Source: a virus (lineage: Duplodnaviria > Heunggongvirae > Uroviricota > Caudoviricetes). From it: a stretch of 4,541 nucleotides of DNA. Every line of letters begins with the position of its first letter. Position 1 is the stretch's first letter. Of this stretch, positions 1-4,541 are shown piece by piece. The notes beneath the pieces are model-generated. The model saw nothing but the letters and a program-made list of their open reading frames with translations, had not been told where the DNA came from and did no database searches. Position numbers and translations under genes: made by a program. The stretch is taken from the IMG/VR virus record IMGVR_UViG_2671180432_000007; one strand, given 5' to 3'.

Positions 1-83
1 GGAAGTCGCTGTCGTTCTCAAAATCGGTGGAGCTGCATGACAAAGTCATCGGGCATTATCTGAACATAAAACACTATCAATAA
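1..83 (+). CDS. insB: IS1 transposase insB, 3' end only (26 C-terminal codons plus TAA at 81-83)
   Basis: Translation of 3-80 gives KSLSFSKSVELHDKVIGHYLNIKHYQ followed by TAA, matching the recalled C-terminus of IS1 InsB. The gene is 5'-partial at the window edge. Confidence 0.88.
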   Translation, partial: KSLSFSKSVELHDKVIGHYLNIKHYQ

Positions 84-98
84 GTTGGAGTCATTACC
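1..98 (+). mobile_element. IS1 right-end fragment (terminal 98 bp, IRR at 76-98); the rest of the element lies outside the window to the left
   Basis: Reverse complement of 76-98 is GGTAATGACTCCAACTTATTGAT, which I recognise as the IS1 right terminal inverted repeat. Plus-strand frame 3 encodes the InsB C-terminus. The gp47-like reading frame is broken exactly at 98/99. Identification is from memory of the IS1 sequence, not a database search. Confidence 0.9.
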
Positions 99-692
99 TG
101 CGCCCCCCTGTGGAATGTAGTAATAACGTTCCATAACGCGGGCACGCCATATTTCCAGATTTTCAATATCTTCACCGTCTGTAATGGTGTCAGCGTACCC
201 TGTGGACGGCAGACCACTGACGGGTGTTCCCAGTTGCATGGCAATACCATCATCCGTATTCCCCGCCGATCCCGGTTCGTCTGCCACAACAGGCACCCGG
301 AGAAGACCATCGGCTGCGGTCACCGTCGCCGTCGTGGTAAAGGTCACCTGATTATCACGCTGGATCTGCGTTCCCGCTGGCAATACCGGCGTCCCCTCTA
401 CGCCATCCCAGCGCACAAATCCCCGGGCTGCCACCGCTTCTTTTCGCGGGCAGCGTTTGATTCTGGCGTGCCGGTACAGCCAGTCTTCATCACACACGTC
501 CGGTAACAGATTTCTGGCAAGATAATCGATATACCCGTACAACGTGTGTACGGCTGCAGCCTGTACACGGGCATACACTTCCGCATCCATACGACGAAGC
601 AGCGTATCCTGCTCAAAGCGGGTTAATAAATCGCTCCGGATCATAGAAATAAGTTGCGGGAGGCCGGGGCGATAAAACTGACTGTCAGCCAT
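18..692 (-). pseudogene. Mu gp47/W-like baseplate J-family protein, 3'-truncated by IS1 insertion at 98/99
   Basis: 224-aa ORF with ATG at 692-690 and a GGAG Shine-Dalgarno 8 nt upstream. It sits last in the N-P-Q-gp46-gp47 order. Only about 198 codons (99-692) are phage-derived; the last 26 residues (GNDSNLLIVFYVQIMPDDFVMQLHRF) and the stop come from IS1 read antisense. Baseplate J proteins of Mu-like phages are about 350-380 aa (recalled, not checked). Confidence 0.78.
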
Positions 693-1095
693 TCAGTTCA
701 CTCCAGATATCATCAAAAATAATGTTGTGAATATTGCCGTCACGCTGGTAAATGGTAATGGCAAGTGCCAGCGAGTCTGTCCCGGTCCGGACAGCGTTAA
801 TATCAAGACGGGAAGCAACACCATCCTCCACCATCCACGCCAGCGCCTCACGGACATAATCTCTGGCAAGCTGCGGGGTTTTATTTGTCAGCTTGCTGCG
901 TCGCAACAGATACAAACGCGACCCCGTGCGATCATTCTGAACCGCAGGCCAGGTATCCCCCCACCATCCAAATATCCGTGGTGCATCATCACGCCCGGCA
1001 CGCCGCCATGTAAAAAGCGAAATAATCACAGCACGCGTCAGAAGGTCGATCGAAGCCCCGGTCGACACGGGTCGCCCGTTAACATTAATCATCAT
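685..1095 (-). CDS. Mu gp46/V-like small baseplate protein (GP46 family)
   Basis: 136-aa ORF between the Q-like and W-like genes. Its stop overlaps the W start by 8 nt (ATGGCTGA). Size and position match Mu gp46. Confidence 0.78.
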   Translation of the reverse strand: MMINVNGRPVSTGASIDLLTRAVIISLFTWRRAGRDDAPRIFGWWGDTWPAVQNDRTGSRLYLLRRSKLTNKTPQLARDYVREALAWMVEDGVASRLDINAVRTGTDSLALAITIYQRDGNIHNIIFDDIWSELNG

Positions 1096-1100
1096 GATTT

Positions 1101-1634
1101 TCAGCCCATCGGTTGATCCGGCGTGTCAGTGATCCCGCCACCATCACCATTTTCGGTATGTTTGTGGGCATTGTAGGCCTGCCGCATTTGCTGCATGCTG
1201 AGTCCGCCACTGTCGCAATTGTCAGTAATATCGGCGGTGGATTCGACTGGCATTTCAAAGCGCGCTTTAGGCGCGTTTTTAAAAATTATGGCCTTCCCGG
1301 CCCCGTCCACCACAATACCGGAACGGGTCAGGACAACGGACTGTCCCAGATCGTCATAAAGCGCCACTTCCCCACGTTTCAGTCCTTTCAGCCGGTAACG
1401 TCTGTCAGCCACGACCACAACCACACCATGAGAACGATCGCCCGCCGGAAATAAAGCAACGCCCTCAGCACCGTTCTGTGCGGCAGATGTAAAACCATAA
1501 GGTTCAAGGTGCTCAACGTGTTGTTTCTGATCTCCGGCTATCATTTTCAACCCTACAGACTGACACTTTCTGGCGGAATCCACCGCCGTGATGACAGCCC
1601 GGGAAATCAGATTACGAAGAGAAAACCCGTTCAT
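1101..1634 (-). CDS. Mu gp45/Q-like baseplate assembly protein V / central spike
   Basis: 177-aa ORF with ATG at 1634-1632 preceded by GAGGAGG 7 nt upstream. It overlaps the 3' end of the P-like gene by 23 nt. Size and synteny match Mu gp45 / P2 gpV. Confidence 0.8.
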   Translation of the reverse strand: MNGFSLRNLISRAVITAVDSARKCQSVGLKMIAGDQKQHVEHLEPYGFTSAAQNGAEGVALFPAGDRSHGVVVVVADRRYRLKGLKRGEVALYDDLGQSVVLTRSGIVVDGAGKAIIFKNAPKARFEMPVESTADITDNCDSGGLSMQQMRQAYNAHKHTENGDGGGITDTPDQPMG

Positions 1635-2694
1635 CAGAAATCCTCCTCAACATTTTTTTCTTCCTGGCGGTAACAGGCTCGGGGAGATAAGCATCTGCCG
1701 GGCCAACCCGTAATTCAGTCGTCGTGCCCCGGTCGTCCTGGTTATAGGTAACTTCTGCGATCACCAGTTCATCATTATCAAAATTATTCAGCGGGTCGAA
1801 AACGATGACAGATAACCCCGGACGCCATAACGCGCCACTGCCCTGCCGCCAGCCCTGAACCGTATATGTTGTCTCACGGGTAAGCGCAGCCCGTTGGCGC
1901 GCTTCAAATTCACAACGGGCCTTACAGGTTGCTGTCGTTGCTGTGCCTGACTGCTGAATCAACAAAGGGCGATAACGGGTCACGCCACTGTCCTGAATGG
2001 TCTGACGTATTGCGGCAATGGTGGCCTCACCAAAATCATCGTCGTTGCCCGGGCGCTGCCCACTGACCTGATATTCAGAAAACCGCTCTCTGATGCTTCT
2101 TTCCGTGTCACAGGAAAGAATATTCTCTCCCAGCACCAGCACCAGCGCCGTCGCCGCTTTACCTGTTCCGGGTTTTCCCAGAACCAGTCGCCCGCATTCA
2201 TCGTCATAAGCCAGCGTCTGAACCTGCCCCAGTAACCGGTTAAGACAATCGGCAACGGTTTCGCCGTGTTCCGGCTGGGCATCAATCACCGCTGTCTGCG
2301 GCACGCCAGCATCAACAACGGTGATGCCAAATGGCGCAGCCAGTTCACTGACTATTCTGAGCAGGTTTTTTCCGCTCTGCTGGAGTGGCAAAGCAGAGCA
2401 GTCAACCAGATCGGCTGTTTTGCTTCGCCCGACAATTCCCATGCTGACGCTGCTGGCGTCATAACGAAGCGGTAGTGCCTCCACATATCCGGTGAGCACA
2501 GGCTCATCCCCGATAAGCACTTCAACCAGCTCACCATTTTTTATCCGGGGTTGATAATCCCGGCTTCCGGGCCAGCGGGTGGTAATGGCAACATTAAAAT
2601 CCCGGGCAATACGGTTAATGCCCGCACTGATACGGACGGATGTCCAGCCGCCCCATTCGCGACCGGAAACCCGAAGTAAAACGGTATCATTCAT
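1612..2694 (-). CDS. Mu gp44/P-like tail protein (GPD / late control D family, baseplate hub)
   Basis: 360-aa ORF. Its ATG overlaps the N stop as ATGA (2691-2694), suggesting translational coupling. N-terminal and central motifs resemble Mu P / P2 gpD proteins as recalled. Position immediately downstream of the N-like gene. Confidence 0.83.
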   Translation of the reverse strand: MNDTVLLRVSGREWGGWTSVRISAGINRIARDFNVAITTRWPGSRDYQPRIKNGELVEVLIGDEPVLTGYVEALPLRYDASSVSMGIVGRSKTADLVDCSALPLQQSGKNLLRIVSELAAPFGITVVDAGVPQTAVIDAQPEHGETVADCLNRLLGQVQTLAYDDECGRLVLGKPGTGKAATALVLVLGENILSCDTERSIRERFSEYQVSGQRPGNDDDFGEATIAAIRQTIQDSGVTRYRPLLIQQSGTATTATCKARCEFEARQRAALTRETTYTVQGWRQGSGALWRPGLSVIVFDPLNNFDNDELVIAEVTYNQDDRGTTTELRVGPADAYLPEPVTARKKKMLRRISDERVFSS

Positions 2695-4015
2695 CTGACG
2701 GGTACCCTTAATGCCCTGACCGGAACAAAGCCCGGATGAGAGATGGCATTTCGATCCAGGATATCAGTTTCACGGGACGCATCGTCGTACCATGACGCAG
2801 CCAGAACAAGCGCAGGCAGAACTTCCGCTGGCGTTCGCTCTGCGGTTTCCTCCGTCTGAACCAGACGCGCCTGAATATCCCGGTTCAGTTCTGTACGTAA
2901 TGACGTCAGCTGAAAAAACAGCCTGTCATCCGCCGTACGCCTGAGCTCCTGTTCAATCGCCGCGTTCAGCGATTTGCGTATGATGGTGAGATTTTCCCGC
3001 GTGGGTGGTTGCGCTCTCTCATCCTGTCCTGTGCTGGCTGCCACGCTGTCAAGTGCCGGATGAGAAACGTGAATAATATCGGACTGACGTTCAGTGGAAC
3101 CACCAACAGCCACAACCGCCTGCTGATTTTTCACCAGGCTTCCGGGTTGTGGCAGTGAAGTGACCGCCCTTGTGGCTTCGCTGATTGCCGTCGTCCGGAT
3201 GACAGCAGCCACAAGGTTTGTCTGCTGTTTTTGCCTGATAACCGATGCGGAATCTGTGGGCCACACCGCACGCGGTGCCAGTCCTGGGTCCAGCGTAATG
3301 CCGGACATTGTCGTTATGGACTGCACCAGATCCTGTGTGTTATCCACCAGCCGGGTTCCGGCCCGCCAGGTATCCTGCAACGTATGCACAAAATCACTGG
3401 CAACCGACGGCGGCATCAGAATGACGGATAAATCGCCCTGCAGTAGTCTCGCTCCGGCAGAAACAGCCGAATTAACCATTTTGAAAGCTGTCTGAACGGT
3501 TCCCAGCATATCGGTCGTCCGGGCAATAACATCGTTCTGAATAAAGTCCGGTATTCCCGCGAGATCAAAATCGCCGAACATGTCTTCAATCAACTCATCC
3601 AGGAATACGGACGACTCCTCCAGTTTTCTGGCGGTTGCAGCTCCGGCGACCGGAAATGACAGTTCCNNNNNNNNNNNNNNNNNNNNNNNNNNNNNNNNNN
3701 NNNNNNNNNNNNNNNNNNNNNNNNNNNNNNNNNNNNNNNNNNNNNNNNNNNNNNNNNNNNNNNNNNNNNNNNNNNNNNNNNNNNNNNNNNNNNNNNNNNN
3801 NNNNNNNNNNNNNNNNNNNNNNNNNNNNNNNNNNNNNNNNNNNNNNNNNNNNNTGGGTATTCATGGACCTGAACGCGGCGTCCGAACGAACCCTCGTCGC
3901 TCTCCACCGAAAACGGAACGCCACGAAATGAAGCGTCGTAAAGATTATCGCGCCAATTGATACCTGAAGATGCAGAAAAGAGTGAAGAAAGAGAAGGTAA
4001 AGAAGGTAAGTCCAT
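2691..4015 (-). CDS. Mu gp43/N-like DNA circulation protein, interrupted by a scaffold gap (3667-3853)
   Basis: The 5' part (4015 to 3854) encodes MDLPSLPSLSSLFSASSGINWRDNLYDASFRGVPFSVESDEGSFGRRVQVHEYP, a typical DNA_circ_N signature, with ATG at 4015-4013 and GGAG 5 nt upstream. The frame ending at 2691 is open all the way from the gap edge (3665), so the 300-aa track ORF is the 3' part of the same gene. Frame continuity across the gap cannot be judged because the N-run length is arbitrary. Confidence 0.75.
3667..3853. other. Assembly/scaffold gap (187 Ns)
   Basis: Uninterrupted run of n characters. Confidence 1.
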
Positions 4016-4029
4016 ACTGTCTCCACTAT

Positions 4030-4053
4030 AAAAAAACCGCCAATTTCTGGCGG
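4030..4053 (-). terminator. Putative rho-independent terminator downstream of the low-GC ORF and immediately upstream of the N start
   Basis: On the minus strand: stem CCGCCA (4053-4048), loop of 5 nt, stem TGGCGG (4042-4037), then 7 consecutive T (4036-4030). It begins 8 nt after the ORF stop (4064-4062). The stem is short (6 bp, 5 of them GC). Confidence 0.55.
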
Positions 4054-4061
4054 CTTATATA

Positions 4062-4457
4062 TTAATCATCATTAATATCTTTCATATTCAATTTGCAATT
4101 TTCGTAGGTCACTCCCGACTCGCCATTAACATTAACTCCAGCTCTGATATTCCCGTTTTCTTTTACATCTACAAAAAACTGGCCTCTTGGCATCTTGAAC
4201 GCAAATGTAAAACCAACAGTATCTGAATCAAAATCATCATCTTTATATATTGGGATCAAAAATGTCATCGTCGCTGGTGATGCATTGTTTGCAAAATCAA
4301 ATACACCTATACTTTTGCCGAATTCATAAGAAGCTTTTCTCAATATAATCGCACCGCTGGCAGAAGGGGATGGGCACGATATCCTCAGTTGTCTGAATCC
4401 ATCTGTATCCAAGTCAACGTCATTATCTGCAGATGTTTTAACGGGTAATGACTCCAA
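4062..4457 (-). CDS. Hypothetical protein in a low-GC island; function unknown; possibly 5'-truncated or pseudogenised at the IS1 junction
   Basis: 131-codon ORF in a region of about 38% GC. The apparent start is a TTG at 4457-4455 inside the IS1 end, with no Shine-Dalgarno and an in-frame stop further upstream in IS1. Only 4062-4443 is non-IS sequence. The first internal ATG (codon 64) also lacks a clear Shine-Dalgarno. I recognise no family. Confidence 0.4.
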   Translation of the reverse strand: MESLPVKTSADNDVDLDTDGFRQLRISCPSPSASGAIILRKASYEFGKSIGVFDFANNASPATMTFLIPIYKDDDFDSDTVGFTFAFKMPRGQFFVDVKENGNIRAGVNVNGESGVTYENCKLNMKDINDD

Positions 4458-4541
4458 CTTATTGATAGTGTTTTATGTTCAGATAATGCCCGATGACTTT
4501 GTCATGCAGCTCCACCGATTTTGAGAACGACAGCGACTTCC
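4444..4541 (-). mobile_element. IS1 right-end fragment (terminal 98 bp, IRR at 4444-4466), inverted relative to the left copy; the rest of the element lies outside the window to the right
   Basis: 4444-4541 is the exact reverse complement of 1-98 (98/98). The plus strand at 4444-4466 reads GGTAATGACTCCAACTTATTGAT. Identity breaks at the next base inward (position 99 versus 4443). Confidence 0.9.
4459..4541 (-). CDS. insB: IS1 transposase insB, 3' end only (second, inverted copy)
   Basis: Mirror image of feature 1-83: the minus strand encodes KSLSFSKSVELHDKVIGHYLNIKHYQ followed by a stop. Confidence 0.88.
   Translation of the reverse strand, partial: KSLSFSKSVELHDKVIGHYLNIKHYQ

Follow-up and report, generated by a model that had tools for sequence, protein, structure and literature searches.

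A probable moron remnant disrupted by IS1 in an SfV-like enterobacterial prophage

The AT-rich island near the right end of the window analysed here (the whole stretch of 4541 nt, in which all long open reading frames (ORFs) between the two ends lie on the minus strand) is, with a probability of roughly 85%, the promoter-distal three quarters of a moron that was broken by IS1 in an SfV-like prophage. Morons are defined as extra DNA between adjacent genes that has a deviant base composition, carries its own promoter and terminator and is expressed from the repressed prophage (PMC3594210). Inserted DNA, a deviant composition and a terminator of its own are all found at the present locus. As an element, the IS1-disrupted moron is of an already well-known kind, and the family of its gene is catalogued yet uncharacterised. 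The host of the prophage is most likely Shigella sonnei; the exact ORF resulting from the fusion with IS1 has the entry CST24788.1 ('Uncharacterised protein [Shigella sonnei]'), found on 16 short contigs of approximately 4.4–5 kb, and the window itself is presumably an S. sonnei draft contig with an IS1 repeat at either end.

Anatomy of the island and of the IS1 insertions

Between its two ends, the window carries a series of Mu-type tail genes on the minus strand. From left to right, these are the first 198 codons of a baseplate J/gp47 gene (99–692; Pfam Baseplate_J, E 3.5e-24), whose 3' part is cut off by the left IS1 at position 99 and which relatives carry as a full 360-aa gene; a Mu gp46-type baseplate gene (685–1095; Pfam GP46, E 4.5e-33); a Mu gp45-type gene for a baseplate assembly protein V or spike (1101–1634; Pfam Phage_Mu_Gp45, E 2.1e-26); a Mu gp44/P-type baseplate hub gene with Pfam GpP-like domains (1612–2694); and a Mu gp43/N-type 'DNA circularization' tail gene (2691–4015), recognised by Pfam DNA_circ_N on the residues encoded at 3854–4015 and annotated in relatives as a 463-aa protein. 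Within the last of these, the N gene, a run of 187 N (3667–3853) replaces 254 nt, the true length of the gap being taken from L015, an IMG/VR contig that contains the locus of the window together with its flanks and is 99.97–100% identical to it, including the IS1 ends. Alignment with intact relatives revealed a -1 frameshift in a homopolymer of the gp44/P gene (seven T at 1653–1659 compared with eight in the relatives), which rewrites the last 6 residues of the protein and adds 9.

A GC scan of the window confirmed the abrupt low-GC island that the original prediction had described next to these genes. The GC content is 0.375 at 4020–4443, 0.378 at 4016–4457 and 0.383 at 4081–4380, compared with 0.545 for the phage genes at 99–3666. 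Sliding windows of the same size across the latter have a mean of 0.545, a standard deviation of 0.018 and a minimum of 0.502, from which the island (4020–4443) deviates with z of about -9.6. The value of 58% initially given for the baseplate genes is slightly high (53–56% as measured here), and the contrast itself stands. The GC3 of the moron ORF is likewise low (0.31 versus 0.52–0.55 in five neighbouring genes), and no part of the 21.6-kb structural region of an intact relative is lower in GC than the island.

The island holds a single minus-strand ORF (4062–4457), as had been stated; the claim that the plus strand is free of ORFs is correct apart from a trivial 44-codon ORF with a TTG start at 4195–4329, the only one on this strand. 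Because the TTG of the minus-strand ORF (4455–4457) is spurious, lying inside the IS1 end and belonging to IS1, this chimeric frame of 131 codons has no genuine start, and the earlier doubt about its start codon was justified. What remains of the moron gene itself is its 3' part (4062–4443), comprising the stop codon (4062–4064), codons 35–160 (4065–4442) and the last base of codon 34 (4443). The conjecture that IS1 had interrupted a longer gene, leaving its C-terminal part, proved right, with 126 of 160 codons kept; the length of 127 residues assigned to this part has to be corrected to 126 residues plus the stop codon. The gene is followed by its own intrinsic terminator on the minus strand (4056–4034), also foreseen, which consists of AAGCCGCCAGAAATTGGCGGTTT and a T-run, i.e. 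a 10-bp stem with 5 G-C pairs and then TTTTTTT, and which ends approximately 15 nt before the ribosome-binding site and start codon of N. Three terminator-like sites were found, compared with 0.3 expected. A search against Rfam gave sub-threshold matches only, caused by the terminator hairpin.

The two ends of the window (1–98 and 4444–4541) are 100% complementary to each other and are thus perfect inverted copies, in line with the IS1 end that had been called on the right. The left one is a GGTAATGACTCC... end that points inward, the rest of the copy running leftwards beyond the window; both ends read as the GGTAATGACTCC... terminus of IS1, which L015 confirmed. There, both IS1 copies are complete (768 bp) and mutually opposite in orientation. 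One lies in the moron gene (L015 5232–5999), flanked by the 9-bp sequence CGTTAAAAC, the other in gp47 (L015 10412–11179), flanked by the 9-bp sequence GGGGGCGCA. One copy of each target duplication falls within the window, namely TGCGCCCCC at 99–107 for the left IS1, where junction and duplication are seen in L015, and GTTTTAACG at 4435–4443 for the right IS1 (CGTTAAAAC on the gene strand), the same 9 nt that flank the complete IS1 in L015. The right copy, whose terminal 98 nt (4444–4541) are identical to the L015 copy, interrupts the moron gene at 4443/4444, after codon 34. On the far side of this IS1, L015 continues with codons 1–34, the leader and then directly the tape-measure gene; the latter, which had been expected at the place of the island, is therefore present immediately beyond the IS1 and the 5' fragment of the moron gene.

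Both copies share with IS1 simple insertions the length of 768 bp, the canonical GGTGATGCTGCC... and ...GGAGTCATTACC ends and the 9-bp duplication, and no notable difference was observed, the copies being mutually inverted yet unrecombined. Since each has its own 9-bp duplication and the interrupted genes resume beyond it, we conclude that two independent simple insertions occurred in a colinear prophage. Nothing is deleted or inverted between the IS1 copies, and the window is simply the stretch between two independent insertions. A reading of the pair as a composite transposon or as the product of an inversion was rejected because each copy keeps its own target duplication. As the start codon, the signal peptide and the leader with any promoter have been split off by IS1, the moron copy of the window is a pseudogene, and the second IS1 in gp47 together with the frameshift in gp44 indicates that the prophage as a whole is decaying.

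The intact gene, its slot and its family

The proposed check of IS1-free relatives recovered the complete 160-codon gene and its neighbours. The stretch 3854–4443 was found in 11 of 5426 complete E. coli genomes with 97.6–100% identity, and the remnant matches, with 100% identity, the intact gene carried by E. coli FDAARGOS_944, an ipaH-bearing, Shigella-like strain. The intact gene (483 nt) is annotated as 'hypothetical protein' (WP_000594909.1 in FDAARGOS_944 and WP_032083313.1 in STEC316) and is located in both strains between 'phage tail tape measure protein' and 'DNA circularization protein'. The surrounding prophage combines a Mu-type contractile tail with a P27-type small terminase and with a protease and capsid of the HK97 family. 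Given its HK97-type head and lambdoid regulation, with a tail module that alone is of Mu type, we regard the prophage as SfV-like and not as the Mu-like genome initially assumed.

The classification as a moron, one of the origins originally considered, is borne out by comparison with near-identical prophages. In the moron-less E. coli prophages L004 and L005, 15 nt separate the tape-measure stop from the N start. A blastn comparison of L005 with the moron-bearing L001 delimits the insert to L001 12167–12767, where 601 nt stand in place of approximately 21 nt. In the window, the insert starts at 4020, and 424 of the approximately 601 nt are retained as its AT-rich part (4020–4443, minus strand), while the remaining 177 nt (5' leader and codons 1–34) lie beyond the right IS1. 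Between L005 and the moron-bearing prophage, N is 96% and P 99% identical; as this near-identical module exists without the cassette, the latter is dispensable for the tail module. A structural gene of the Mu-type tail would be present in all functional relatives, and L004 and L005 do not have this one though their neighbouring genes are otherwise intact. As to a promoter, a strict sigma-70 consensus scan upstream of the gene detected none in L001 or L003, and in a lenient scored scan, one of seven lineages (L017; TTGGCT-16-TATAAT, p 0.03) exceeded shuffled controls. With no above-chance promoter in the other six, expression in the lysogen may be independent, or the gene may be produced from the late operon only.

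Contrary to the view that the ORF has no recognisable family, the protein matches PHROG 5586 with an E value of about 1e-88 (9.7e-89 for the full-length protein, residues 1–160 on profile positions 1–161). The whole profile is covered, the homologue of phage vB_EcoM-720R4 matching with E 3e-85, whereas the copy of the window comprises residues 35–160 only. The family carries no functional annotation; because the entry is without function, membership says nothing about mechanism. The suggested homology search thus led to PHROG 5586 and to no characterised protein: Pfam, NCBIfam, PADLOC and PDB sequence searches with the protein gave no match, and no anti-phage defence model of PADLOC-DB 2.0 was found at E ≤ 1.

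Word-indexed searches of 5.8 billion proteins returned 9 clusters with the single protein, 16 with an alignment (A3) and 57 with an alignment of the sister subgroup (A4), and a profile search run exhaustively over 1.84 billion representatives yielded 18. All named members belong to the Enterobacterales (Shigella, Escherichia, Yersinia, Citrobacter, Leclercia, Klebsiella, Salmonella, Serratia, Erwinia, Pantoea and Kluyvera). No functional name was encountered among the family members found, all of which are 'hypothetical'; the source names 'DUF2850' and 'opacity protein-like' attached to two homologues were unsupported by Pfam and were set aside. One of 50,697 deposited phage genomes has a family match (vB_EcoM-720R4), and the Shigella subtype occurs in 2 of 185,579 species-representative genomes; no locus was confirmed when such genomes were scanned with alignment A6. 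The literature contains no mention of WP_000594909, of URC09681 (the 720R4 allele), of phrog_5586 or of vB_EcoM-720R4.

The slot between the tape-measure gene (PhageMin_Tail) and DNA_circ_N is the same in all tail-module loci examined, i.e. those of the Shigella type and the 720R4 type, of Yersinia, of a multispecies Enterobacterales allele (P0038), of the E. coli P0011 type, of Erwinia and Serratia and of a prophage carried by an APEC plasmid. The tape-measure gene itself is uncalled or disrupted in two of them, those of Yersinia and Erwinia. Across seven lineages, the gene has a GC content of 0.34–0.43 and a GC3 of 0.26–0.41, compared with 0.47–0.59 in the flanks. This AT-richness of the cassette persists across lineages despite saturated synonymous sites. 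In all seven, a G+C-rich hairpin with a T-run is located between the gene and N, just before the ribosome-binding site of N. The protein identity between lineages is 36–74% for the moron and 52–71% for the N protein, that of the moron being similar to or somewhat lower than that of N, and dN/dS values of 0.09–0.33 for diverged pairs indicate purifying selection. A distant branch of the family (23–30% identity) is found in plasmid-like prophage elements, near RepA, ParA, a CI-like repressor and toxin-antitoxin pairs, where the gene stands alone, followed by a terminator of its own and preceded by a shared AT-rich palindrome, without being AT-rich itself. The existence of diverged alleles, the purifying selection and the co-divergence with N lead us to consider the cassette an old resident of its slot that is occasionally lost, and not a recent import. 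The suggestions that the island is recent host DNA or a piece of another element fail on the same ground, as diverged alleles hold this slot in several genera and roughly co-diverge with N.

The predicted protein

Signal-peptide features, namely a basic n-region, a hydrophobic core and small residues at positions -3 and -1, are present in 33 of 35 members as judged by explicit scoring of these features in place of a dedicated predictor; the two exceptions are N-terminally truncated records. In the Shigella allele, the signal is MIKPFLMTVAILTSCCAQA, followed by K, corresponding to a Sec signal peptide of 19 residues and a mature protein of approximately 141 residues. In the copy of the window, the signal segment is absent, lying beyond IS1. 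The signals of the Shigella and Yersinia subtypes include a lipobox-like LTSC/LISC, and judging from this motif, these subtypes could be lipoproteins. Given the lipobox-like motif and the feature-based signal call, the exact location in the envelope is uncertain.

Three residues are invariant in the family (C57, G80 and C150), and the motifs CPxxSASG, GQFFV and AGVNxNGxSG are nearly invariant. An AlphaFold2 model based on 12 diverse sequences (pLDDT 84.9, pTM 0.77) shows a helix at residues 24–41, followed by eight strands between residues 52 and 152 that are predicted to form an up-and-down beta-barrel; a first run with a 6-sequence alignment (pLDDT 41.8) was discarded. In the predicted model, C57 ends strand 1 and C150 is located in strand 8. 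As strands 1 and 8 are neighbours in a closed barrel, a barrel-closing C57-C150 disulfide is likely, and from the topology of the model it probably staples the barrel. Foldseek searches of PDB and BFVD gave no match with an E value below 0.01. A Calx-beta lead (3e9u_A) with a profile E value of 0.1 went to E 0.68 with the 35-member profile and was treated as noise. The matches to the large repeat proteins P0017, P0019 and P0020 (cadherin-like/Big_9 or T9SS surface proteins) were read as generic beta-strand similarity, and a relationship to MliC at the sequence level was dismissed after hhalign against E. coli MliC yielded a probability of 6% that came from the signal peptide only.

Possible role in the cell envelope

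The closest parallel to the layout of the cassette is provided by the gp15 moron of phage HK97, which is located beside the tape-measure gene and encodes a prophage-expressed superinfection exclusion protein acting at the envelope (Juhala et al. 2000 and Cumby et al. 2012, as summarised in PMC3594210). In both cases, an extra cassette of deviant composition and with its own terminator adjoins the tape-measure gene in the late tail operon, is absent from related phages and encodes a product bound, here by its predicted signal, for the cell envelope. However, gene 15 adjoins the tape-measure gene from the opposite side and belongs to a siphovirus, and gp15 is a small YebO-like inner-membrane protein as opposed to the exported beta-barrel predicted here, without any sequence or fold relationship to the present family. 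Moreover, exclusion and prophage expression are experimental findings for gp15, whereas both are predictions for the present family. The likeness is one of position and cellular destination, without homology.

Lambda Bor and Lom, T5 Llp and P1 Sim are further exported phage conversion or exclusion proteins encoded by morons or accessory genes. Together with phi80/N15 Cor and T4 Sp, they resemble the present family in being small proteins with export signals, whose genes often lie within or close to tail genes and which function in the envelope of infected or lysogenic cells, a site of action that may apply here as well, but they have no detectable homology to it. Among them, Cor and Llp are lipoproteins blocking FhuA, and Lom is an outer-membrane barrel. 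Exported or envelope proteins with roles in phage conversion or exclusion also include T4 Imm and P22 SieA, besides Cor and Sp (PMC11436027). None of the known exclusion proteins gave a sequence match or a significant fold match to the present family.

We suggest a working scheme in which (i) the intact cassette would be transcribed on its own in the lysogen; (ii) the terminator of the moron would keep this transcription out of the tail genes; (iii) Q-antiterminated late transcription would pass the terminator during lytic growth, a Q antiterminator being encoded by the cassette carrier 720R4; (iv) the exported protein would act in the periplasm or envelope; and (v) it would exclude superinfecting phages, most likely by binding either a component of the envelope or a tail or ejection protein as it arrives. 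We infer expression in the lysogen because a terminator directly before N is mainly useful against transcription that has begun without antitermination, and action in the periplasm or envelope would fit a small barrel that is exported and stapled by a disulfide. Superinfection exclusion as the specific role draws on the predicted localisation and on the analogy with gp15 of HK97, with Cor and Llp and with Sp of T4; we consider it the likeliest single role, though a doubtful one. With similar reserve, we put forward the broader hypothesis that PHROG 5586 may be a new family of Sec-exported, disulfide-stapled barrels that work from the periplasm to keep out superinfecting phages or to protect the envelope in some other way, with a fixed slot, co-divergence with the ejection proteins that they would recognise and an AT-richness under selection. 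If this is true, the selected AT-richness could reflect H-NS-type control of a lysogen-expressed gene.

The protein could instead serve the phage's own lytic cycle, being produced from the late operon only and exported shortly before lysis for the masking of receptors or debris or for the modulation of lysis, not for lysogen conversion. No convincing independent promoter was found, in all tail-module loci the gene has the orientation of the late tail operon that contains it, and its divergence tracks that of the neighbouring N protein, all of which suits such a role. We nevertheless judge it rather unlikely: the strong terminator before N in seven lineages fits mainly Q-independent transcription, the distant members stand alone with their own terminator in the maintenance and immunity region of plasmid-like prophages, and near-identical tail modules lack the gene. 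Improbable, in our view, is a periplasmic inhibitor of peptidoglycan hydrolases, similar to PliC/MliC/PhiA or to T6SS immunity proteins, which would guard the lysogen from host lysozyme, amidase effectors or the tail lysozyme of incoming phages. No Pfam match to PliC/MliC (PF09864) was obtained at E ≤ 10, and in contrast to PliC/MliC/PhiA, the present family has an extra N-terminal helix, is approximately 40 residues longer and fits other barrels better.

There is very little to be said for the product being an unannotated part of the Mu-type tail, whether structural or needed for assembly. Such a part could be expected to keep one place between two tail genes, as the ORF does in many prophages and in the isolated phage 720R4, but the conserved predicted Sec signal leads away from the cytoplasm, the site of tail assembly; one prophage, whose N and P are 96% and 99% identical, manages with 15 nt from tape-measure gene to N; 720R4 is the only one among 50,697 deposited phage genomes with a family match; and the composition is anomalous, with a terminator belonging to the gene alone. 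Recent foreign or host DNA, or cargo of an IS1-borne composite transposon, as might be guessed from the abrupt GC fall adjoining an IS1 end and from the 4.3-kb segment bracketed by inverted IS1 copies, is already refuted by the matching 9-bp duplications of each IS1, the continuation of the interrupted genes beyond them, the same island at the same place in IS1-free relatives and the 38–74% identical alleles that hold this slot in other genera.

For the window itself, the identification of the island as an IS1-broken moron is of little consequence, since it concerns a dead gene in a decaying prophage of a kind common in Shigella genomes. The family is modestly notable: it is exported according to its signal features, has a well-folded model, is under purifying selection, occupies one slot across at least six enterobacterial genera and is dispensable for the tail. 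Such a profile is typical of prophage genes that alter the host envelope, be it for phage exclusion or for host interaction. Of modest interest are the slot that is fixed across genera, the persistent AT-richness and the confident barrel model without a close structural relative. Phage vB_EcoM-720R4 and the intact Shigella and E. coli alleles make the family readily accessible to direct study, and it is reasonable to regard the intact alleles as candidates for a new envelope-level prophage function.

The IS1-bracketed segment and its decay

Two complete IS1 copies that are inverted relative to each other, represented by the window ends 1-98 and 4444-4541 and located at 5232-5999 and 10412-11179 of L015, an IMG/VR contig that carries the same locus with its flanks, enclose 4345 bp of tail genes. 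Such an inverted arrangement would permit inversion of the bracketed segment. However, each IS1 copy retains its own matching 9-bp duplication, which indicates that recombination between the two copies has not inverted it. At the junction with the interrupted moron gene (a PHROG 5586 gene lying between the tape-measure gene and gene N), a chimeric ORF at 4062-4457 on the minus strand starts from a TTG within the IS1 end. This ORF is recorded as a protein in public S. sonnei assemblies (CST24788.1; also WP_252861237.1, partial), an annotation that is an artefact of the IS1 junction.

Inside gene N, which encodes the Mu gp43-type 'DNA circularization' protein, the window contains a run of 187 N (3667-3853). 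The run is a gap or mask and does not represent a deletion; L015 has 254 nt there (6590-6843) that restore the full 1392-nt gene. The minus-strand baseplate hub gene gp44/P has a homopolymer of 7 at 1653-1659, compared with 8 in the intact copies of L001, L002 and L005, and carries a -1 frameshift that replaces its last six residues, NVEEDF, with MLRRISDERVFSS and extends the ORF 22 nt into the spike gene gp45. The same frameshift is present in L015; either the prophage has decayed at this site as well, or both assemblies carry one and the same sequencing error in the homopolymer.

Moron-bearing loci in other genomes

In L001, the prophage of E. coli FDAARGOS_944 (NZ_CP065613.1), the moron gene is intact despite two ISEc60 insertions (16620-17810 and 22333-23523) that interrupt the sheath and portal genes. 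A frameshifted ipaH gene (1675-3316) adjoins this prophage in a record labelled 'E. coli', and FDAARGOS_944 appears to be a genome of Shigella or EIEC type in which the same prophage has decayed in a different way. A tape-measure gene of about 1.9 kb would be expected between the tail tube gene and the moron gene on the Yersinia enterocolitica contig L009, but the 1.5 kb there (6491-8001) contains no called gene; the tape-measure gene may be cut short or have gone unannotated in this contig. For the Yersinia moron gene, P0002, the start as called probably makes the gene too short, as starting at an in-frame ATG 27 nt further upstream yields MKKPIYLCF... and a normal signal peptide.

Signal peptides, upstream sequences and AT-richness

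The signal peptides of the Shigella and Yersinia alleles (L001 12209-12691; L009 about 7974-8459) include a lipobox-like LTSC/LISC that is absent from the other subtypes, and on this basis their products might be lipoproteins. Distant family members reside in the plasmid-like prophage elements L006 and L007, next to RepA, ParA, a CI-like repressor and toxin-antitoxin genes; no close relative of these elements was found in PLSDB. Both share an AT-rich near-palindrome, TTATTT(T)AAATAAATATTTAAT, which precedes the family gene by 20-50 nt (L006 about 690-735; L007 about 2870-2915) and could be a promoter or operator.

The GC3 of the moron gene is low (0.26-0.41) in all seven lineages compared (L001, L003, L009, L017, L020, L022 and L024), although its synonymous sites are saturated between lineages. 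This argues that the AT-richness is kept up and is not the fading trace of a recent transfer. Regulation, such as xenogeneic silencing, may be the cause.
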